Source of the DNA: Deltaproteobacteria bacterium
Lineage (GTDB): Bacteria > Bdellovibrionota > UBA2394
Assembly (NCBI GenBank): GCA_017302715.1
Contig: JAFLCD010000012.1
Coordinates: 480 to 64,479, forward strand
Direction of reading: 5' to 3'
Length of the DNA: 64,000 nt
The first letter of the stretch is position 1. The number at the start of each line of letters is the position of its first letter. Positions 28,214 through 36,775 of the stretch are shown here, piece after piece. Under the pieces are notes generated by a model. The model ran no database searches. It was given only the letters and a program-made list of their open reading frames with translations, and was not told where the DNA came from. Made by a program: the position numbers and the translations under genes.

Positions 28214-31200
28214 TTAAAATCGAAGAGATATCGGAGTTCCTACGGCGTTTGAAGAAGTGTTAACAATTTCGAGTGAATCATTGCTTTGACACAATACGTA
28301 AAGATACTTCACCGCAGTGATCGTAATTTCCATCATCTTGGTGGGACCACATCCCGAAGTGAGACTGACCGTAGCGGCAACAGCATCGGTACTGAGATTG
28401 AGTACCGTTAAGCTATCATCCGAAAAATTAGAAATAAAAGTTTTGGTGGCGGAGTCGACAGCATAAGCATGCAGCGGCATGGATCCTGTGGCGACATCGC
28501 TGGAAGACCCGGATTCGTTAAAAATCCGAACGACATCAGCTCCTGGATAAGTGACATAAGTTTTAAGATAAGTCGTTCCCACAGAGGTTGAAATGTGAAG
28601 AGGAGAGGCCGAGAGCGCAAGATTTGTAGTTAGACGAAATCCCGAAGTAAAATTGGTGTACATCGATTTTGTAGACGGACTAAGGGCATAAAGCACTGCC
28701 GACGTTGGATTATAAACGGCTTCTCTAAGTCCAAAGTAAATCAAACTGTCGGTTGAAGTTACGGCATTAGTTGTTCCGTTAATCGTAGAAATAGTTGTGG
28801 AGCCTTCATGTACGACGGACACCGCATTAGTCGAAGGATTCACTGCAACGTCATATGGATCTGTCGACACACTGACATGCGAAATCGCAGCATTCGTCGC
28901 CGAGTTAAAGATGCTCACCGAATTTGATTTCATATTGGCGACATAGAGTTTGCTATTGGCGGTGCTTACGGCCATGGCCATGGGACGTTTTTGAGTAGAA
29001 AGAAATCCAATCGAAGCAAGATCTCCGTTGGTATCGAGGCCAAGTACCGAGATGCTATCGCTTGAACTACAGAGCGCGAACAATTTTGAATTGGTAGTGT
29101 CGAGTGCCAATTCAGTGGGGGAATCGCAGACAGAATATATGCTGAGTGCTGAGGTAGAAGCATTGAGAATTCCGATGGCGTTGATCGAGCGAAGAGAAAC
29201 ATAAATGCGACCTTTGGCTGTCCAAGAAACAATATCGCTTGCCGTATTATTCAGCGCAGAGGCAAGACTCTCGCGTTGATGAAGAGCGCTGATGCGTTGA
29301 ACGACAGGTTTAGAAAAATCAGCCATCCATACCATTTCGGATCCATCGAATGCTGTTACAGCTGGATCCACATCGATGGGGAGTGTCTGATTTGCAAAAG
29401 TAGTGGATGACATATTGGCTATCGGAAAAATTCCTACAGATTTTTTAGAGGGGTAGTATGTAAAAATATTTGAAGAAGATGAAACGCCCGAAGAAAAAAC
29501 TCTGCTGAAAGGAGAGAGAGTTTTGCTTTCTCCATCTGAATTTACAAGAGCAGTTTCATTGAGAAGTCCTGCGATGACTTTATTTCCGTTGCCGCTCAGA
29601 AGATGGGGTGAACTTGAGAGAGTTGCATCCGTACTGGTTGTTGGCGTAACCGTTGAGAAAGACATTCCGTTCATGCTCGATGCGATGGCGCCGGTGGTTT
29701 GAAGTGCAATGTCTGTAAAACTTCCGGGCAAAGTATGAGTCGCTTGGACTGCCATATTCGAAGCGCGAAGAGCGACTACTTTATTGCTGCCGCCCACATA
29801 CAAAGTGGCGGGAGTGTCCGCCGATTGATAAATAATTTTTTTAGGCGTGATGCTGAGAGCGGTATTGCTTACAAAAGCTTCGGATCCTGAAGTGATATCA
29901 ATCGTCGTAACAGACTGAGAGGTCTCATTGACCGCCCAAAGTCGATTCGCGGTCGCGTTGAAATCAAAATGAACAGGCCGAGTTTGAGTCGAGAGGTTCG
30001 TAACGGCATTGCTTGCAAGATTGATGACCGATAGTGAATTGGATCCTCGATTCAAAACGTAGAGACGATTCGTGCGATAGCCGATTTGAACGGGAGATGT
30101 CTGCACATTGAAATGTCGTAAGCGCCAATTAGAAGAGCTGAGTTCACTAAGTGAATACGCTGTATTCGCAGCTGTTGAAACAAAATGCATCACACTTGTG
30201 GATTGAGCGGCTATGGAATCAATGGACTGGGGTTGATAGAGAGTGTCTGAGATGGCTTGAGTTGTAAGATCGACAATACTTATGGCGTTGCCGGTATTGC
30301 TGACAAGCACTGCAGAATCCAAAGCTCCGTAGTGGCCGATATCGTTCATCACGACCGGTAAAGTAATCGTCGTGGTCGTAAAAGTATGAGTGGGATTAGA
30401 GGCGATGGCTGTTTTATGAAGAATAAGTTTTCGATCGGATTGCATCACGGCTACAAAACGATTGGTTCCGTCTGAACCCACGAGCATCTTGATAGGATTT
30501 TCTCCGGCAGAAATAGATTTTACAAAGACATCGCTTGTGTCGTAAATATTTACGAGTTTGTCTGAAGGGCAAAACACATAGCGGTATCGTGAAGCCGATT
30601 CAAAATCTCTCATCATTTGCACAGGAGATCGGCAGGTCGAGAAAGTCGTCGAAGAAGTGAAGCCTGTATTGTAGTGACGAATATAATCATTTCCAAAAGT
30701 CGTAGTGGCAACTCCAATCGTATGATTATTATTCGATTGAATCGTCACAAAAAGTTCTGAAGAGTCGAGATCGTAAAGTGGTTTTCCAAATTGAGCGTGA
30801 CGAGATTCGCTCATCGTTTCCGCCGCTGTCAAAGCACTCATGGTCGAGCCTTGATAAGATCGCAAAATAAGTCCGGTGGCATTTTGGTAGCCGACAAAGA
30901 TCGTGGGATCTGCGGCGGTTGTGGATTGAATCCATTGAGGAGACGCAATCGATGCAGAAAGTGCCGAAGAGCAAAGAGTGGTGGTGTTGGGTGTGAGCGT
31001 ATAGGAGTAAACGGTATTTGCTTTTTTATCGGCGACAATGAGTCGATACGTTGTTCCCGAAGCGGATTCGGCTATATGAATATCGCTGATTTCTTGAAAG
31101 CCTGTGCAAGAAAGACTGCTGATCACGGGAACGCCAGATACGTTTGTTCCGTAGTAAATTTTGTTGCGAGCTTGATTTGTAAAAACAAATTCAGTGCTCG

Positions 31201-31453
31201 TATCTCGCTTCATATAGAATAAACTGCGCGGACCCACCGCCACATTTTCTGGAAGTTCGGATAAAATCAGATCGCGATTGGCGATATCGGTCGCACGAAT
31301 AGAAGAAACGGTAGAAGTTTTTGAAGAGAAAATAAAAACACGGGAAGTAGCACCGCCGCGAACTTGAAGGTCACCGGTTCCGATCAGTGACGGACCTTGA
31401 GGCATGACCGCATCTACGTGTCCGACGAGGGCAAAGAGAATGGCAAGCAGCAT
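28214..31453 (-). CDS. Large (1079 aa) Ser/Thr-rich secreted surface protein with YVTN-type beta-propeller repeats
   Basis: Signal peptide; repeated ~40-aa units (KLYVANMKSNSVSIFNSATNA..., PYDVAVNPSTNAVSVVHEGSTTIS...). Confidence 0.6.
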   Translation of the reverse strand: MLLAILFALVGHVDAVMPQGPSLIGTGDLQVRGGATSRVFIFSSKTSTVSSIRATDIANRDLILSELPENVAVGPRSLFYMKRDTSTEFVFTNQARNKIYYGTNVSGVPVISSLSCTGFQEISDIHIAESASGTTYRLIVADKKANTVYSYTLTPNTTTLCSSALSASIASPQWIQSTTAADPTIFVGYQNATGLILRSYQGSTMSALTAAETMSESRHAQFGKPLYDLDSSELFVTIQSNNNHTIGVATTTFGNDYIRHYNTGFTSSTTFSTCRSPVQMMRDFESASRYRYVFCPSDKLVNIYDTSDVFVKSISAGENPIKMLVGSDGTNRFVAVMQSDRKLILHKTAIASNPTHTFTTTTITLPVVMNDIGHYGALDSAVLVSNTGNAISIVDLTTQAISDTLYQPQSIDSIAAQSTSVMHFVSTAANTAYSLSELSSSNWRLRHFNVQTSPVQIGYRTNRLYVLNRGSNSLSVINLASNAVTNLSTQTRPVHFDFNATANRLWAVNETSQSVTTIDITSGSEAFVSNTALSITPKKIIYQSADTPATLYVGGSNKVVALRASNMAVQATHTLPGSFTDIALQTTGAIASSMNGMSFSTVTPTTSTDATLSSSPHLLSGNGNKVIAGLLNETALVNSDGESKTLSPFSRVFSSGVSSSSNIFTYYPSKKSVGIFPIANMSSTTFANQTLPIDVDPAVTAFDGSEMVWMADFSKPVVQRISALHQRESLASALNNTASDIVSWTAKGRIYVSLRSINAIGILNASTSALSIYSVCDSPTELALDTTNSKLFALCSSSDSISVLGLDTNGDLASIGFLSTQKRPMAMAVSTANSKLYVANMKSNSVSIFNSATNAAISHVSVSTDPYDVAVNPSTNAVSVVHEGSTTISTINGTTNAVTSTDSLIYFGLREAVYNPTSAVLYALSPSTKSMYTNFTSGFRLTTNLALSASPLHISTSVGTTYLKTYVTYPGADVVRIFNESGSSSDVATGSMPLHAYAVDSATKTFISNFSDDSLTVLNLSTDAVAATVSLTSGCGPTKMMEITITAVKYLYVLCQSNDSLEIVNTSSNAVGTPISLRF

Positions 31454-31522: not shown

Positions 31523-31921
31523 CTAAGGAGAAACATTCAGAGTTTTCCAATTTTGAATAGCTTGTAAAAGTGAGTCAGAATTAGTGCTGCAATTGTTCCA
31601 ACAGTTGTGACCGCCTTGAACCTTCAAATAAATTCGAGAGAGTTGAGGCGTATCAAAATCCACTAAGCCTGCGGAGTTCATAATCGTATTGAAAGAAGAT
31701 TGAATATCATTGGGGAGAGCAAAGAAAGGAGCTTGAGTGGTCGCATGACAAGAGGAGCATCGATCTTTTAATATAGGATAAAGTGTCTGGCTAAAGTGTG
31801 TGGCTGATGCTGTCGCCGATTCTGTTTGCAATTGTGGAATATCTAAACTTCCGCCGCAAGCTGAAGCAAGGAGGAGCAAACTTCCCAAGGCAAAATAAGA
31901 ATGTGAAAATATTTTTTTCAT
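31523..31921 (-). CDS. Lipoprotein with single CxxCH motif, PSCyt1 (DUF1549 N-terminal 'planctomycete cytochrome c')-like
   Basis: Lipobox LLASAC; LYPILKDRCSSCHATTQ matches the F..I.PIL...C..CH pattern of PSCyt1. Confidence 0.5.
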   Translation of the reverse strand: MKKIFSHSYFALGSLLLLASACGGSLDIPQLQTESATASATHFSQTLYPILKDRCSSCHATTQAPFFALPNDIQSSFNTIMNSAGLVDFDTPQLSRIYLKVQGGHNCWNNCSTNSDSLLQAIQNWKTLNVSP

Positions 31922-33447
31922 TACGTTGCCTTTTTAAAGATCAAATATTTTGAATAGTTTGCCCCTTCAAAAGGATCTGATCCATTTCCTCCCGGTAAAC
32001 TTTTTAATTCAGACTCGCGACCTGAGAGCGCCAAATAATTAAGCGCCACTGCTTTTGCCATATTCGTTGGAGAATTATTTGCGGTGATTAAATAAGAGAT
32101 ATCAACTCCTGAAGTAGTGAAAGCTCCGACTTGTCGTCCGCTGTTTTGCACTTGAGCTCCGCGAGTCGCGCCCGGAATATAACTGAAAACGGCGCAGACC
32201 GATGCCGCACCATTATCGCCAGGTCGACTTAAAAATCCGTCCCCTCCAAAAGTAGGGTTCTGCGCATTGCCGAGATTGCTGACCGATGTGTCCGCTGCGC
32301 TTGTTCCCATTCCACCGTCTGTGATCACGTGAATGAAAAGAGGTTTTCCGATTCTCGCGGCGTAGTGGAGCATTTTTCCAACTTCAGCTCCTGCTTGAAA
32401 GCCTTTTTGTCGTGTTTCGGTTGCCGTATTATCGTGTGAGTCATATCCGCCCAATGTGATTGTTCCAACACCAGAAAAATTTTGCATCACGAGTCGTGTC
32501 ACCACCGCACTCGCGTTATTGGCGAGATTTGTCGTGGCGTAAGCCACAGCCAAATCATCAGTAGATGAAATGGGATCGTTTGGAAAAATTTGTGTGGGTT
32601 GAAAATTGCTGAGTAAAGAATCGGCGTTGATGTAACCACACTGAACCAGCTCATCGATTTGTTGAGTAAGATTCATATTACGAAAATCTCGAAGTTTGGC
32701 GCTGCTCATTTGAGCTGTCGCGGTTCTAATTTTTTGCATTCGTGCAGCGCCCAAAGCGTCAATTAAACCACCGCGATCGACAATAGATTGAGCGCCTCTT
32801 CGATTGGCGACTCGGATAGGACGATAAGCAGAAACTTCTGAACCTACGGCTGCCGAGGCATTTCCACCCGAAAGGGAGCCTTCGGTTCCGATAGAAGGAA
32901 GAAGTTGCCCTGATCTTCCTGCGGCTGAAACAAGATAGCCTGCATTGTGTGCATTGATGCTCGTGTCGTCGTTAGATGTTCCACAGAGAATGAATCCGTC
33001 GACAGAATTTCTAAATTGCGAAGGCAAGAAAGCATTTAGGCCAGCAAGAAAACTGGAGTCGGGATGCATCGCCACTCCGTAAGTGGTGTCGGGTGCGATC
33101 GCAGCGCCATTTCGAATCGCTCCGTATTTTAAATTCGCAGGAATTCCGGAGACGATGTTGCTTGAAAGAAAATCCATTTGTCCGCCCCGTCCTCCGGGAA
33201 CAAAATCTTGAGCCATGGGGTAACCACCCGCGAGATCCAAAGTGATAAAAGCAATTTGATTGCTCATCGACGCATTCGAGCAGCTTGCAGGTGTGGCTGC
33301 GTAAACGTCTTTGAATAAATAAGAAAAAATATTGGGCATTAAAATGCTACCCACGCCGGCCATTAATCCCTGCGCAATAAAATCACGGCGAGTCACCGGC
33401 TTTTTGTGATTCTCATGTTGAAATATTTTTTTCTTCTGTTGTTTCAT
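31921..33447 (-). CDS. TAT-exported DUF1501-like (sulfatase-fold) protein
   Basis: Twin-arginine signal VTRRDFIAQGLMAG; IAFITLDLAGGYPMAQDFVP and GGYDSHDN resemble DUF1501 WLSGG...D.FDPKP / GGWDTH motifs; alternative start 33498. Confidence 0.55.
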   Translation of the reverse strand: MKQQKKKIFQHENHKKPVTRRDFIAQGLMAGVGSILMPNIFSYLFKDVYAATPASCSNASMSNQIAFITLDLAGGYPMAQDFVPGGRGGQMDFLSSNIVSGIPANLKYGAIRNGAAIAPDTTYGVAMHPDSSFLAGLNAFLPSQFRNSVDGFILCGTSNDDTSINAHNAGYLVSAAGRSGQLLPSIGTEGSLSGGNASAAVGSEVSAYRPIRVANRRGAQSIVDRGGLIDALGAARMQKIRTATAQMSSAKLRDFRNMNLTQQIDELVQCGYINADSLLSNFQPTQIFPNDPISSTDDLAVAYATTNLANNASAVVTRLVMQNFSGVGTITLGGYDSHDNTATETRQKGFQAGAEVGKMLHYAARIGKPLFIHVITDGGMGTSAADTSVSNLGNAQNPTFGGDGFLSRPGDNGAASVCAVFSYIPGATRGAQVQNSGRQVGAFTTSGVDISYLITANNSPTNMAKAVALNYLALSGRESELKSLPGGNGSDPFEGANYSKYLIFKKAT

Positions 33448-33451
33448 AAAA

Positions 33452-34138
33452 TTAAAAATAAATAACAGGGCCACTTCCAAGAGCAGCTGCACACACACCG
33501 TTCATGGCATTCTTTAAAGTCGTATTATTATCTGCAAATCCTGTAGCGAGATCGCCCGATAGAGTGACCAAACTATTGATGGCGTTTTGTCGACTAACGG
33601 TGGGAGCAATTTCTTCTCCCCAAAATCTTTTAAGCATAAATTCGGCAAAGGTATATTTTTGCGTCGAGCTCCCCAATAAGTCAGAATATTTTTTTGCACC
33701 AAAAGTACCAGTGGTTGTTCCAAAATCAGTGCCGTTGAAAAAATTAATTCGGTTAGTTTCTGAATTAATGAGTTCAATACAAAATTGAGAGGCAAAATTC
33801 ATAATCGATATCAGCTGATTGGCTTGCAGCGATTGAATATCATTTGAAGTGGGTAAACTGGGTTTGTTTGTATTGTAATAGACATTTAAATTTCCGTTAT
33901 TGCTAGCGGGATTAATTCCTGTTGCTGACACCATGCTTGCAAAAATCTGTTCGTAGTTTTTTACTCCAACACCTTGTAAGCCTGTCGAGTCATCCGCAGT
34001 TGAATTATTAGAAGAAATGGAATTCACCGTCATTTGACATCCGCTCATCCCCAAAGTGATTAACGTCATCGAGGAGATGAAAGTGGTGGAGTAAATAAAT
34101 TTTATAAAAATATCCTTCATTTTTATTTTCCAAAACAT
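33452..34138 (-). CDS. Hypothetical secreted/lipoprotein (228 aa)
   Basis: N-terminal hydrophobic signal with Cys; no family recognised. Confidence 0.35.
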   Translation of the reverse strand: MFWKIKMKDIFIKFIYSTTFISSMTLITLGMSGCQMTVNSISSNNSTADDSTGLQGVGVKNYEQIFASMVSATGINPASNNGNLNVYYNTNKPSLPTSNDIQSLQANQLISIMNFASQFCIELINSETNRINFFNGTDFGTTTGTFGAKKYSDLLGSSTQKYTFAEFMLKRFWGEEIAPTVSRQNAINSLVTLSGDLATGFADNNTTLKNAMNGVCAAALGSGPVIYF

Positions 34139-35439
34139 AATTTTGAGGTTTCTGCAAAGAGGGCTCTCATATTATAAGCACCCGAAGCCGAATAATTTGA
34201 ATACTCAGGAAATCCCGTTTCAAATTTTCTGGCGATGGTGATCAATAAATTTGTTTCAGCTGCGCTAGGAGCTCTTAAGCAAATTCGGCTAAAAACTTTT
34301 GTCGCCATATTTTCTGAGAAAGCTTTAGTGGCGGCGAGCATTCGTCCGAAGCTTTTGATTCCTTTTCCAGAAGTGAGAGAAGGAGTATTCGCATCTGTTC
34401 TCCATCCTAGATTTGCATTAGGACCTGTCGACCAAAAATTGAGCCACGTATTATCTTTTAAGCGATAGCCGCTTGGAAAAACCGTATCTTGTCTAAATTG
34501 TTTCGTCTGAACGGTTCGTCGGTAAGTAATGATTTCGCTCGGAAAATCGATATAGGCGAAAGCTCCCGCAAGCGCATCGAGATTTCCGTGACAACCCATA
34601 CAAGTATTAAGAAAAGTTTGAGAGTTTCCTCCAGGAAGTCGGTCAACGTCCTGACGAACACGTGCATCCGAAACATTGGCGTCGTGAAGCTGCGATAAAT
34701 CTTTTCCTAAAAATCCCCAGAACGCATAACGCACGGGTCTTCGATTTGTTCCTGCCGAATAAAATTCTAATCCCCACTGACGAGTGGTGAGTAAACCCGA
34801 AACATCTTCTGCATTGAGAGGAGAGTCTTGAGTCAGAGCAAAAATATCACTTTGACGTCTAGCCATCAGCAAGTTTGGCCAATTAGAAAAGCGCTCCAAA
34901 TCTGAGTAATGAAAAAAATCTCTAAATAAAGTATTCGGATTTGCAGCTCCCGGGATCACTAAGAGTGGACGAATTTTTCCATCTTGAAAATTATCTACGG
35001 GTTGTCGAACTAAACCTGGGTTCGTTTGTAAACTTTCGAGTCCTGTATAAATCACATCTCCATAAAGAACTTGATCGAAGGATTGATTGTTGATGATGAG
35101 GCCAACAATTGTTGCCGTGAAATCATTCAAAGCTAAGTCATTGGTTTGGGCTTTATTAGAAAGTGGATTAAATAAATTTTTAATCGTCAGTTTATAAAAA
35201 TTAACATCATTCATCGCAATGAATGCCGCTTGGGCTGTTTGACCATTTTGAAGAAAAGTCGTTAAGCTTTGTAAAGTTGAAAGGCTAGGAGATACGCCCG
35301 TAAATCGAGAGTAAAGTCTTTGAGCCTGATCTTGCGCGTTTTCGGTATCCAAATTGGCGGCAGAAATTTCGGCGCGCGCGACAAAAGCCACGTAAAAAAG
35401 AATGAGTAGTTTTTGGAGACACCCACGCATGCCTCTCAA
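34123..35439 (-). CDS. Secreted protein with single CxxCH motif (planctomycete DUF15xx/PSCyt-like)
   Basis: Signal peptide; FLNTCMGCHGNLDALAGAFAYIDF resembles the C..CH..D..G.A.E.FD block of planctomycete cytochrome-like DUF families. Confidence 0.45.
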   Translation of the reverse strand: MRGMRGCLQKLLILFYVAFVARAEISAANLDTENAQDQAQRLYSRFTGVSPSLSTLQSLTTFLQNGQTAQAAFIAMNDVNFYKLTIKNLFNPLSNKAQTNDLALNDFTATIVGLIINNQSFDQVLYGDVIYTGLESLQTNPGLVRQPVDNFQDGKIRPLLVIPGAANPNTLFRDFFHYSDLERFSNWPNLLMARRQSDIFALTQDSPLNAEDVSGLLTTRQWGLEFYSAGTNRRPVRYAFWGFLGKDLSQLHDANVSDARVRQDVDRLPGGNSQTFLNTCMGCHGNLDALAGAFAYIDFPSEIITYRRTVQTKQFRQDTVFPSGYRLKDNTWLNFWSTGPNANLGWRTDANTPSLTSGKGIKSFGRMLAATKAFSENMATKVFSRICLRAPSAAETNLLITIARKFETGFPEYSNYSASGAYNMRALFAETSKLCFGK

Positions 35440-35570
35440 AAATGCAAATATTAGGCCGCTGAGATTTTTTACTAAGCCATCGATATTATTGATGAAAAAT
35501 TCAAGACATTTCTAAAACTTTGGCATTTCTGCCCGGCCCCAAGCAATTTTCGTCGCGCAAGATTTGCACA

Positions 35571-35618
35571 GGGGGTCGGGTCGGAAAGGTGCCAGGTCAG
35601 CTTTCCGACCCGACCCCC
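35571..35618. repeat. GC-rich palindromic element, copy 3 (short variant, 15-bp stem)
   Basis: ggggtcgggtcggaaaggtgccaggtcagctttccgacccgacccc; same arm/loop sequence as copies at 2874 and 4845; sits 5 nt past stop of OMP gene. Confidence 0.6.
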
Positions 35619-35623
35619 AAAAA

Positions 35624-36775
35624 TCAAAAATGATATTTCAAATTCGCGTGGGCGCGGAGGTAACTCAAATCGATTTTGGCGTCGGTATAAGTTTGCGAAA
35701 TTCGAGTGCTCGATGCGCTTGAGCCTTTTCCTTTGGCCGTCATCATCTCTGCAGTTAAATCCGACGACCAATGATCAGCCCATCGATATCCAAAACTTCC
35801 GGAAAAAATAAGTGGAATACTATCCGCCGAAATTCCCGGCGACTGAGTTCCATCTTCCGAAAATCCGGCCCCAAGAATAGCCGTCGCGCCTGCTGAATAC
35901 ATAAAATCTTCGGCGAATTTTCCTTCAACCTTAAAAGGAATCGCAATTCCCTGAGTCGTCGTTTCAACAAAGAGCAAAGTATTTTGAACCGGATTTAAAT
36001 CGGGCGAAACATCGAACATATAAAATCCAAGTCCGAGTCCTAAACGCACATAAGAATTTGCTGAAGAATAAATTTCATATTTAAAAAATGAATTCGCCGA
36101 AAAAGTATGTGTATTAATTTGATAACCTGCACCTCGCACTTCAGCGACTTCAAATTGAGGACCCAACGTTAATCGATACATTCCGTAATGATATGCACTT
36201 TCGAAAGTCCAAAACGCAGCGCGATTCCAAAGTGTCATTTGCAAAAGCGAAAGATCAAGGGCAAGTCCCGTACTCAATCCAGAAAAGTCATATTTATAAA
36301 TGGTGTTGCGCGAGCCCGATTGCAAGCCCGTCAATTTGTATTGAAGTTTTTGCATTCCTAAATCGAGATGAATCGAACCTTTGTCAGAAATTCGTCCCGA
36401 CCAAAGCCAAAGATAGCGATCTGATTCGAGCGGATTTTTTTCTGCAGATTTAGTACCAGCAACAGATGGTTGCATAATCGGAGCCGCTCTTTCGAGCGCG
36501 AGTTCGCCCTTCACCCATCCACGAAAATTTAAACCCTCTTTTGAAATAACTTCGACTTCGTACCAAAGTCCATCCGAGCGCAGAAAAACAACTTTATCCT
36601 CTAAAGTGATCTCCTTTAATACAGCCGCGTCCGCAGCAGGAGAGACGCGCAACTCTCGCGAATAAGTTGTACCCGGCGGCGGCTTGAGCGGACTCAGTCC
36701 CGTCGGAGAAGCCGATTGCGCGTAGAGAAGTGGAGTACCTAAAATAGAAAGGATTAGATAAAGTCTAAAAAGCAT
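35624..36775 (-). CDS. Putative outer-membrane beta-barrel protein with N-terminal SH3b-like domain
   Basis: Signal peptide, SH3-like segment (DGLWYEVEVISKEGLNFRGWVKGELA), beta-strand pattern, C-terminal ...KYHF. Confidence 0.4.
   Translation of the reverse strand: MLFRLYLILSILGTPLLYAQSASPTGLSPLKPPPGTTYSRELRVSPAADAAVLKEITLEDKVVFLRSDGLWYEVEVISKEGLNFRGWVKGELALERAAPIMQPSVAGTKSAEKNPLESDRYLWLWSGRISDKGSIHLDLGMQKLQYKLTGLQSGSRNTIYKYDFSGLSTGLALDLSLLQMTLWNRAAFWTFESAYHYGMYRLTLGPQFEVAEVRGAGYQINTHTFSANSFFKYEIYSSANSYVRLGLGLGFYMFDVSPDLNPVQNTLLFVETTTQGIAIPFKVEGKFAEDFMYSAGATAILGAGFSEDGTQSPGISADSIPLIFSGSFGYRWADHWSSDLTAEMMTAKGKGSSASSTRISQTYTDAKIDLSYLRAHANLKYHF

Follow-up and report, generated by a model that had tools for sequence, protein, structure and literature searches.

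Four contiguous minus-strand genes, here called A to D, form an operon encoding an extracytoplasmic protein set in a metagenome-assembled genome (MAG) of a Deltaproteobacteria bacterium (Bdellovibrionota; UBA2394). They were analysed within a stretch of 64,000 nucleotides (nt; hereafter the window) of GenBank assembly GCA_017302715.1, contig JAFLCD010000012.1. The best explanation overall, to which we give a probability of about 55%, is that the operon belongs to a third lineage of modules pairing a CxxCH protein with an alkaline-phosphatase-fold protein exported by twin-arginine translocation (Tat), and that its products act as a periplasmic heme-dependent redox/hydrolase complex. The identity of the genes and their place as a deep-branching third lineage of such modules are very likely, while a redox-coupled enzyme mechanism is tentative. 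In a preliminary description, the genes had been presented as a planctomycete-style DUF1501 + PSCyt1 module in a genome that does not look planctomycetal. Their positions, with abutting or overlapping open reading frames (ORFs), the motifs quoted for A, C and D and the lipoboxes of B and D were all found as described (Table 1), and the picture of a secreted module in a Bdellovibrionota-like genome, with a Tat-exported DUF1501-like protein, CxxCH proteins and an evolutionary tie to planctomycete modules, stands. The genes are better labelled as an uncatalogued A/B/C/D module with remote ties to PSCyt3-PSD2 and DUF1501.

Profile scans of A, B and C against Pfam-A and NCBIfam gave no significant match; for D, only Haem_bd (E = 0.032) and, driven by the signal peptide, a 'cytochrome c551' model (E = 3.8e-4) were found. 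The NCBIfam scan of the Alteromonas and L191 orthologs was likewise negative for every component, and none of the four families or domains (A, B domain, C, D domain) has a Pfam or NCBIfam model. The hidden Markov models (HMMs) PF07394 (DUF1501), PF07635 (PSCyt1), PF07583 and PF07587 matched none of the four window proteins, an outcome that the preliminary description had itself named as speaking against its proposal. Membership of DUF1501 and PSCyt1 is thus refuted by the HMM tests, and the literal DUF1501 + PSCyt1 reading fails.

Homologs are widespread. Word-index searches returned 261 homologs of C, 0 of them with a precomputed Pfam domain, and 197 homologs of A. In a scan of one genome per GTDB species, relatives of C were present in at least 593 species, among them Bdellovibrionota (including Bacteriovoracaceae, Halobacteriovorax and Oligoflexia), Gammaproteobacteria (Glaciecola, Alteromonas, Marinobacter, Kangiellaceae, Steroidobacteraceae, Thiodiazotropha, Sedimenticola, Chromatiaceae), Myxococcota and a few Spirochaetales. 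The source MAG carries J0L93 locus tags, and its closest relatives are metagenomic proteins with 47-61% identity. Cultured isolates with complete genomes that carry the module include Alteromonas sp. M12, Ningiella sp. W23, Glaciecola petra, Brumicola pallidula DSM 14239 and Marinobacter sp. BGYM27. D matched itself alone in the word-index search; an exhaustive HMMER search with the D domain yielded 848 cluster representatives at E<=1e-3, of which 268 reached E<=1e-10. D domains occur in 1-4 tandem copies in proteins of 130-1460 amino acids (aa), and 46 of 149 representatives are single-copy.

HMMs built for A, the B domain, C and the D domain were run on the ORFs of 83 further loci and the window (84 in total), in which the B domain was found in 81 ORFs. 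The A / B-domain / C / D-domain set was syntenic in every one of the 83 other loci with a flank uncut by a contig end, and all loci in which a component was missing are interrupted by a contig end. Synteny, proposed as a check in the preliminary description, thus held in the Bdellovibrionota and beyond. The architectures fall into two types (41x A-DDB-C, 11x A-DB-C, 12x A-B-C-D, 4x A-B-C-DD and 3x DA-B-C-D). In the fused type (A, D(D)B, C; 52 clean loci, 54 with two variants; Gammaproteobacteria, Myxococcota and Spirochaetales), the middle gene encodes a lipoprotein of 700-900 aa consisting of one or two D domains, a Laminin_G_3 (LamG) domain, a beta region and the B domain. The split type A-B-C-D(D), in which D is occasionally fused to A as well, comprises 19 loci and the window, or 26 loci including variant and contig-truncated ones, all from Bdellovibrionota.

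A is linked to the planctomycete modules. C280, C283, H284 and D288 were invariant in 40 of 40 homologs. Window A itself matched no Pfam family even at E<=1. When the 40 homologs were scanned singly, PSD2 (DUF1585) was found in 22 (best 5e-11), PSCyt3 (DUF1588) in 18 (best 2.4e-3), Cytochrome_CBB3 in 15 and, weakly, PSCyt2 in six; PSD1 was found in none. To obtain reference sequences, two baits, DUF1552-like and DUF1501-like and both recognised by Pfam, were used only to fish genuine genes from IMG/VR and metagenomes; all comparisons were made with the fetched genuine sequences, which were Pfam-verified (DUF1501 proteins there score 265-487 bits). The canonical DUF1552 partner reads, by Pfam, Cytochrome_CBB3/PSCyt1 - PSD3 - (CBM60) - PSD5 - PSD4 - PSCyt3 - PSD2. 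Alignment of the A family with 23 such partners by hhalign gave a probability (Prob) of 95.2% (E=2.7e-8, 173 columns). Residues 210-434 of window A map to partner residues 581-767, where Pfam places PSCyt3 (584-683) and PSD2 (696-770), and CMGCHGNLD of A lies in register with CAACHARMD of canonical PSCyt3. By this profile comparison, the C-terminal half of A (about residues 210-434) is homologous to PSCyt3+PSD2. A DUF1549/DUF1553-type partner had been expected; A fits PSCyt3/PSD2 (DUF1588/DUF1585), the canonical partners of DUF1552.

The N-terminal half of A and the B domain showed no significant similarity to the canonical partner alignment covering PSD3, PSD4 and PSD5 (Prob <1%), and a search of Protein Data Bank (PDB) profiles with the A alignment gave no meaningful match. 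As a lead only, 'NxxE(Y/I)..T...LTGV' of B resembles the start of PSD3. In the PSCyt3/PSD + DUF1552 pairs of Planctomycetes and Verrucomicrobia, as in the module, a CxxCH partner is encoded immediately upstream of a Tat-signal protein (400-500 aa), and the CxxCHxx(M/L)D motif is shared in register. The canonical partner also has its CxxCH domain first and can carry a carbohydrate-binding module (CBM) insert (CBM60), like the fused D-LamG-B proteins. Unlike the canonical partner (Cyt-PSD3-PSD5-PSD4-PSCyt3-PSD2, with DUF1587/1595/1592/1588/1585), A does not have PSD3, PSD5 and PSD4 upstream of PSCyt3, none of these three being detectable in A or B, and the partner of the module is spread over two or three genes. 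Window A falls below all Pfam thresholds. In every complete locus, C lies downstream of A and is separated from it by B or the fused DDB gene; its profile shows no similarity to DUF1552.

Of the four components, C shows the strongest conservation, with 49% mean column identity and about 36 invariant columns that include Asp/His/Thr/Asn clusters at strand ends. A twin-Arg motif is present in 77 of 84 C ORFs. Neither window C nor any of 40 family members matched DUF1501 (PF07394) at E<=1; DUF1552 (PF07586, HXXSHH) was not matched by the window protein or the 40 homologs, none of which matched any Pfam family, and a PDB sequence-profile search with the C alignment gave no meaningful match to any chain. 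Several C-family proteins (P0024, P0025 and P0106) are called 'general secretion pathway protein GspF' in NCBI/UniRef; they have no GspF similarity, and the name looks like a propagated misannotation.

An AlphaFold2 model of C from a 40-sequence alignment (predicted local distance difference test, pLDDT, 75.5; predicted template modelling score, pTM, 0.78) has a confident alpha/beta core. All of the top 50 Foldseek matches in the PDB belong to the alkaline-phosphatase superfamily (TAB5 alkaline phosphatase, E=2.6e-4, prob 0.92; sulfatases, NPP, PorX, iPGM and BcsG). In BFVD, the best match was A0A6J5M742, a 'DUF1501 domain-containing protein' (E=3.2e-5, prob 1.00, 490 columns aligned over 489 residues), followed by NPP, alkaline phosphatase and sulfatase models at E>=0.046. 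The alignment and the model together place the invariant residues D71, H128, S158/D161/T162/N165, D336/H338, D377 and D411 just after core strands, positions that would resemble those of the metal ligands and nucleophiles of the superfamily. By analogy with the architecture of this superfamily, Asp71 is a candidate metal ligand, and Asp336/His338 may form a metal-binding D-x-H pair. With alkaline phosphatase, NPP, sulfatases, iPGM, BcsG and PorX, C shares the core alpha/beta fold, an Asp at the end of beta1 and a later D-x-H; it differs from these enzymes in its identity of 9-16%, its large helical insertion of low confidence (residues about 221-280) and its obligate partners with heme motifs.

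Profile comparison of C with DUF1501 gave a marginal result. In an hhalign control with large alignments, DUF1552 and DUF1501 were aligned over 370 columns (Prob 96.5%, E=8.6e-10), so the method is able to see this clan. C (119 sequences) was aligned with DUF1501 (about 100) over 101 columns corresponding to window residues 272-376 (Prob 34.7%, E=4.1e-4), with GGYDSH over WDxH and the flanking strand and helices in register. With 83 genuine DUF1552 sequences, only the Tat signal was aligned (Prob 1.7%), and this was also the only alignment with small or low-diversity DUF1552 and DUF1501 sets, including a 4-sequence DUF1501 set. On its model, C is thus best described as a remote DUF1501-like member of the alkaline-phosphatase clan that is not a DUF1501 member by HMM criteria. 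C resembles the enzyme of the DUF1501 + PSCyt1/PSCyt2/PSD1 modules in its Tat export, its alkaline-phosphatase fold with a full-length fold match and the D-x-H in register; the DUF1501 motifs EFGRTP and GRDHW stand against SDG and GDN(S/G) in C, and the partner there is PSCyt2/PSD1, as opposed to the PSCyt3/PSD2-like A. Furthermore, DUF1501 modules are known from the Planctomycetes-Verrucomicrobia-Chlamydiae (PVC) group, whereas the A/B/C/D module occurs in Bdellovibrionota, Gammaproteobacteria and Myxococcota.

These data bear directly on the idea that the genes are a genuine DUF1501 protein with a PSCyt1 lipoprotein, that is, a compact member of the DUF1501 + DUF1549/DUF1553 modules acquired from Planctomycetes or Verrucomicrobia. 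The Tat signal, the GG...DF and GGYDSH motifs and the DUF1501 model as best structural match of C would fit this idea, and D opens with a PSCyt1-like '...YPIL..C..CH' helix. The missing HMM matches in the window proteins and in 40 of 40 C homologs and the PSCyt3/PSD2-like character of A argue against it, and a family native to three other lineages and present in so many species is not a recent planctomycete acquisition. We therefore regard this explanation as very improbable; what remains of the original assignment of C is a DUF1501-like fold and motif.

B and D can be placed with the help of the fused loci. In BLASTP searches, window D matched an Alteromonas protein of 822 aa (L001) at residues 73-150 (E=1e-10) and 177-258 (E=2e-12), and window B matched the C-terminal ~170 aa of the same protein (residues 659-820, E=4e-8); B also matched B204 of L002 (E=2e-20). 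By these alignments, B and D are the C-terminal and N-terminal parts, respectively, of one lipoprotein that is fused in most other lineages. Since B and D are placed at the ends of the fused protein, the earlier statement that the partner is split into separate genes was correct in substance. In 13 Bdellovibrionota split-type loci, a gene for lipoprotein signal peptidase II (Peptidase_A8, fused to DUF4018) lies just 3' of D (e.g. L035:2802-3638), which is consistent with a module having two lipoproteins.

In an alignment of 42 D domains, CxxCH (C22, C25, H26), Pro32, Ser62-Arg63 and His72-x-Cys74-Trp75 were invariant, and Cys78 was conserved in at least 90%. In window D, His105 would be a candidate sixth heme ligand, and Cys107 and Cys111 probably form a disulfide. 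The AlphaFold2 model (pLDDT 95.9) consists of five helices, the second of which ends in CxxCH; the invariant His lies in the loop that leads into a long C-terminal helix. This order of elements would be that of class I cytochromes c with His in the usual place of Met. Like the class I c-type cytochromes PSCyt1, Cytochrome_CBB3, PccH and Haem_bd, D measures ~95 aa and combines a helix that terminates in CxxCH with a loop ligand preceding the long C-terminal helix; unlike them, it has the invariant His of HNCW..C where Met is normal. The Pfam matches of the 42 D domains were all sub-threshold (PccH 15, Cytochrome_CBB3 13, Haem_bd 8, PSCyt1 3, best 0.01). A PDB profile search matched almost only c-type cytochromes, with the CxxCH helix alone covered. 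Against the N-terminal CxxCH helix of the canonical partners, the D domain reached Prob 85% in hhalign, but over only 24 columns. The PSCyt1 signature ascribed to D was not confirmed, weak matches to PccH and Cytochrome_CBB3 being commoner than those to PSCyt1. We take D to represent a new, widespread, putative cytochrome-c-like domain (CxxCH...HNCW) distinct from PSCyt1.

For fused-type loci, the surroundings suggest a redox context. In the 41 such loci whose 10-kb flanks are complete, divergently transcribed genes encode DUF3570 (39/41), an AhpC/TSA-Redoxin (TlpA-like) thioredoxin-like protein (39/41), a propeller protein of ~908 aa with HZS_alpha/PD40 (36/41), an SH3_3 protein with an outer-membrane protein (OMP) beta-barrel (36/41), a second OMP barrel (36/41) and ApbE (14/41). 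The Alteromonas propeller protein gave weak, sub-threshold matches around a C-terminal CxxCH region. Large tetratricopeptide repeat (TPR) proteins are also encoded in the divergent cluster beside A-DDB-C (examples: L104:275-1438, L103:11692-12249, L040:1097-2095, L086:2622-5348). ApbE has been shown experimentally to flavinylate DUF3570 in extracytosolic electron transfer, and clusters of ApbE, DUF3570, thioredoxin-like protein and DUF4266, often with DsbD, are described there as a system for electron transfer outside the cytosol, its function being unknown (Méheust et al., eLife 2021, PMC8238504). This DsbD-linked system is a neighbour and not a homolog of the module; the two would have an extracytosolic redox nature in common. 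Of the evidence at hand, this adjacency speaks most strongly for the module being a redox machine, and it physically links two systems of unassigned function.

Taken together, a periplasmic, lipoprotein-tethered, heme-dependent redox/hydrolase complex is the best reading of the module. A, B and D would be exported unfolded via Sec, and the lipid anchors on B and D would tether the set to the membrane. Heme binding by A and D is plausible in view of the invariant CxxCH motifs and the weak Pfam and PDB matches of D to c-type cytochromes; heme c would be attached covalently at these motifs, with His105 of D as the likely second axial ligand. C, the presumed catalytic subunit, would fold in the cytoplasm, probably be loaded with metal at the Asp/His/Thr cluster (D71, H128, S158/D161/T162, D336/H338, D377, D411) and then be exported by Tat, after which the four proteins could assemble as a membrane-tethered periplasmic complex. 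The two mono-heme modules might relay electrons to or from a redox chain in the periplasm or outer membrane, with the active site or substrate of C at the other end. In fused-type genomes, this chain could be the adjacent DsbD-type thioredoxin-like / flavinylated DUF3570 / ApbE system together with the HZS-alpha-like heme propeller. C itself may act on an extracytoplasmic substrate by redox-coupled transfer or hydrolysis of an ester; the LamG domain in the fused proteins points to a glycan or another surface polymer.

Several observations weigh against this reading. The model of C has low confidence at residues 221-280 and 381-400, and its Foldseek TM-scores are only 0.13-0.34; because of these low scores (about 0.3), the structural support for C as DUF1501-like is moderate. 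There is no significant sequence-profile link from C to characterised enzymes, the DUF1501 alignment reaching 35%. The third conserved acidic position, D377, is followed by Gly378 and not by the His of the 'DH' pair of alkaline phosphatase and NPP, so that the metal site of C is possibly atypical or absent. Structure prediction of D, which had been proposed as a check, yielded a confident model whose helix order appears class-I-cytochrome-like, but Foldseek with this model returned no cytochrome. Apart from a TlpA-like gene in four split-type loci and ApbE in one, the DUF3570/ApbE/HZS-alpha neighbourhood is absent from split-type loci, and it is absent from the 64-kb window. The redox-chain argument is therefore borrowed from another lineage. 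Finally, window D has lost ~270 aa corresponding to a beta domain and a second CxxCH domain that are present in its closest relatives; in the split-type relative L002, this second domain gave a weak match to PSCyt1 and Cytochrome_CBB3.

With 132 aa, window D is the shortest seen: the two closest relatives have D proteins of 397-411 aa (e.g. L191:9524-10717), and in all 25 other split-type loci the range is 346-689 aa. Since D is longer in all of these, the window protein is a truncation and not an ancestral minimal form, and the free-standing D can no longer be seen as the compact version it had been taken for. It might be argued that the operon is decaying in this genome, with D a stump and the window copy non-functional; a tblastn search of the window for the lost part found no remnant. 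What is left of D is a complete domain, however, which keeps every invariant residue and the lipobox and is translationally coupled to C. A, B and C are intact, A and C keep all family-invariant residues, and single-module D domains occur elsewhere, as noted above. We thus consider decay of the operon extremely unlikely.

A further explanation dispenses with redox chemistry. C could be a periplasmic phosphatase- or sulfatase-type enzyme for nutrient scavenging, with A, B and D serving as substrate-binding or scaffold subunits; their CxxCH motifs would then hold structural hemes, or the cysteines would only form disulfides or bind metal. The superfamily fold and the conserved Asp/His residues of C are what would be expected of such a hydrolase, as is the carbohydrate-binding-type LamG domain in fused B proteins. 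The Alteromonas locus lies near a TonB receptor and PhoR/PstS-like genes, and PSCyt genes have been linked to sulfatases and CBMs (He et al., PMC5615132). Two independent, strictly invariant CxxCH motifs are, however, hard to account for without heme, the DUF3570/thioredoxin/ApbE linkage is near-universal in fused-type loci, and the Pho-type neighbours were seen at a single locus. A purely hydrolytic role therefore appears unlikely. Less probable still is an envelope electron conduit or redox sensor that would act in Gammaproteobacteria with the outer-membrane barrels and the HZS-alpha-like propeller, C being a non-catalytic scaffold. The beta-barrel, SH3-OMP and heme-propeller neighbours would be accounted for, as would the lack of the His of the 'DH' pair at D377-G378, and Tat export suits pre-assembled non-enzymatic subunits too. 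On the other hand, the conservation pattern of C is typical of an active site, and split-type lineages retain A-D without outer-membrane or propeller neighbours. Compared with either alternative, the heme-dependent redox/hydrolase complex remains our preferred reading.

At the level of the locus, the four genes are tightly packed. The stop codon of C and the start codon of D overlap in TAATG, B and C are 4 nt apart, and A and B overlap by 16 nt (spacing of 3 nt if the second ATG of B is used). The perfect inverted repeat listed in Table 1, read directly from the sequence, begins 6 nt past the stop codon of the upstream SH3-like gene. It is not followed by a T-tract and was not picked up in the terminator scan; it is likely a terminator that parts this gene from the operon. 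Promoter-like sites showed no enrichment over shuffled sequence. With the hairpin and a promoter-like site before A, A-D look like a single transcription unit of their own.

Table 1. Positions of the genes, motifs and upstream elements of the A-D operon in the window
Feature	Position	Strand	Description
Gene A	34123-35439	minus	438 aa (435 aa from ATG); Sec-exported, helical
Gene B	33452-34138	minus	228 aa; lipobox Cys34; lipoprotein; B domain
Gene C	31921-33447	minus	508 aa from family-consistent start MKQQKKK; ORF reaches 33498; Tat-exported
Gene D	31523-31921	minus	132 aa; lipobox Cys22; lipoprotein; single D domain (CxxCH...HNCW..C)
CMGCH of A, residues 280-284	34588-34602	minus	candidate heme-attachment motif; followed by conserved Asp288
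Twin-arginine RRDF of C, residues 20-23 (TRRDF 19-23)	33379-33390	minus	R20 and R21 invariant in 40/40
LDLAGG of C, residues 70-75	33223-33240	minus	end of strand beta1 (strand 66-72 in the model); D71, A73, G74 and G75 invariant
GGYDSH of C, residues 333-338	32434-32451	minus	after strand 325-332; Asp336 and His338 invariant
CSSCH of D, residues 55-59	31745-31759	minus	candidate heme-attachment motif; invariant in 42/42 D domains
HNCW of D, residues 105-108	31598-31609	minus	in the loop before the last helix (model)
Hairpin	35571-35618	minus	perfect 18-bp GC-rich inverted repeat GGGGGTCGGGTCGGAAAG / CTTTCCGACCCGACCCCC, 12-nt loop
Promoter-like -35/-10 pair	35485-35514	minus	upstream of A; consensus match only

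Two genes flank the operon on the same strand. Directly downstream of D, 69 nt away, a secreted protein of 1079 aa with many YVTN/lactonase-type beta-propeller repeats is encoded (28214-31453, minus). On the other side, a protein of 383 aa (35624-36775, minus) has a weak SH3_3 match (E=0.0019) and the C-terminal ending ...KYHF, typical of outer-membrane barrels. Both were considered as parts of the module and rejected, as 0 homologs were found in the 83 other loci. The HZS_alpha-type propeller beside the gammaproteobacterial module is non-homologous to the window propeller, and homology of the gammaproteobacterial SH3_3+OMP_b-brl protein to the SH3-like protein of the window was not detected; the resemblance of the propellers could be analogy or coincidence.

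Relatives of both planctomycete enzyme families were also encountered in viral sequences. Stand-alone Tat-signal DUF1552 (HXXSHH) genes are present on 26 IMG/VR viral contigs (L004-L029; e.g. L010:6001-7245 and L027:6001-7245), some of which are 100-200 kb long. Their neighbours look phage-like, and the flanks as listed, for which no HMM search was made, showed no ORF of a PSCyt3-type partner. These genes may represent an unrecognised auxiliary metabolic gene. DUF1501 relatives occur on at least 320 IMG/VR stretches (e.g. L192-L271), often in tandem, their neighbours being mostly further DUF1501 copies, and the BFVD 'DUF1501 domain-containing protein' stems from an uncultured Caudovirales phage. 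DUF1501 thus appears to be common in viral contigs or provirus flanks.

The periplasmic Sox system offers a functional analogy, in which the c-type cytochrome SoxAX and the Tat-exported dimetal hydrolase SoxB act on one substrate. SoxB has the metallophosphoesterase fold and not the alkaline-phosphatase fold, and there is no homology to the module. Sulfur oxidisers (Thiodiazotropha, Sedimenticola, Chromatiaceae) are numerous among the hosts of the module, which also include non-sulfur heterotrophs and predatory bacteria.

The planctomycete modules have Tat signals, CxxCH partners and Laminin_G_3 or CBM inserts, and their function is unknown (Kamneva et al. 2012, PMC3542564; PMC5615132); in the DUF1501 + PSCyt modules, where Laminin_G_3 is frequent in the CxxCH partners, a role in electron transfer has been hypothesised (Kamneva et al. 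2012, PMC3542564). In Planctomycetes and Verrucomicrobia, the PSCyt/PSD + DUF1501/DUF1552 modules count among the gene families with the greatest expansion, and since their description in 2004 no function has been assigned to them (PMC3542564, PMC5615132). A literature search brought up no functional work on DUF1501, DUF1552 or PSCyt. The hosts are difficult to manipulate, with dozens of module paralogs per genome. In the A/B/C/D module, a PSCyt3/PSD2-type partner is combined with a DUF1501-type enzyme, which suggests a single ancestral machine behind all three pairings. That this is an unrecognised third lineage, derived with both planctomycete pairings from one ancestral two-component machine and wired to DUF3570/ApbE in Gammaproteobacteria, is a possibility to which we give slightly less than even odds.

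The same design is now seen outside the PVC group, usually as a single copy per locus, in the species enumerated above including cultured isolates. The tractable model suggested in the preliminary description would be offered by culturable species that carry the module; the source MAG with its truncated D is a poorer choice for it, and the gammaproteobacterial isolates are better experimental models. A, the B domain, C and the D domain are four new families or domains for possible entry into Pfam or NCBIfam, and the 'GspF' misannotations of C are corrected. The link to the flavinylation system is the first concrete, testable hint of these modules as redox machines. If true, the module would represent a new class of periplasmic heme- and flavin-fed enzyme, and its presence in culturable Alteromonas, Marinobacter, Glaciecola and Aliikangiella would open the function of PSCyt/DUF1501/DUF1552 modules, a question now 20 years old, to experiment.

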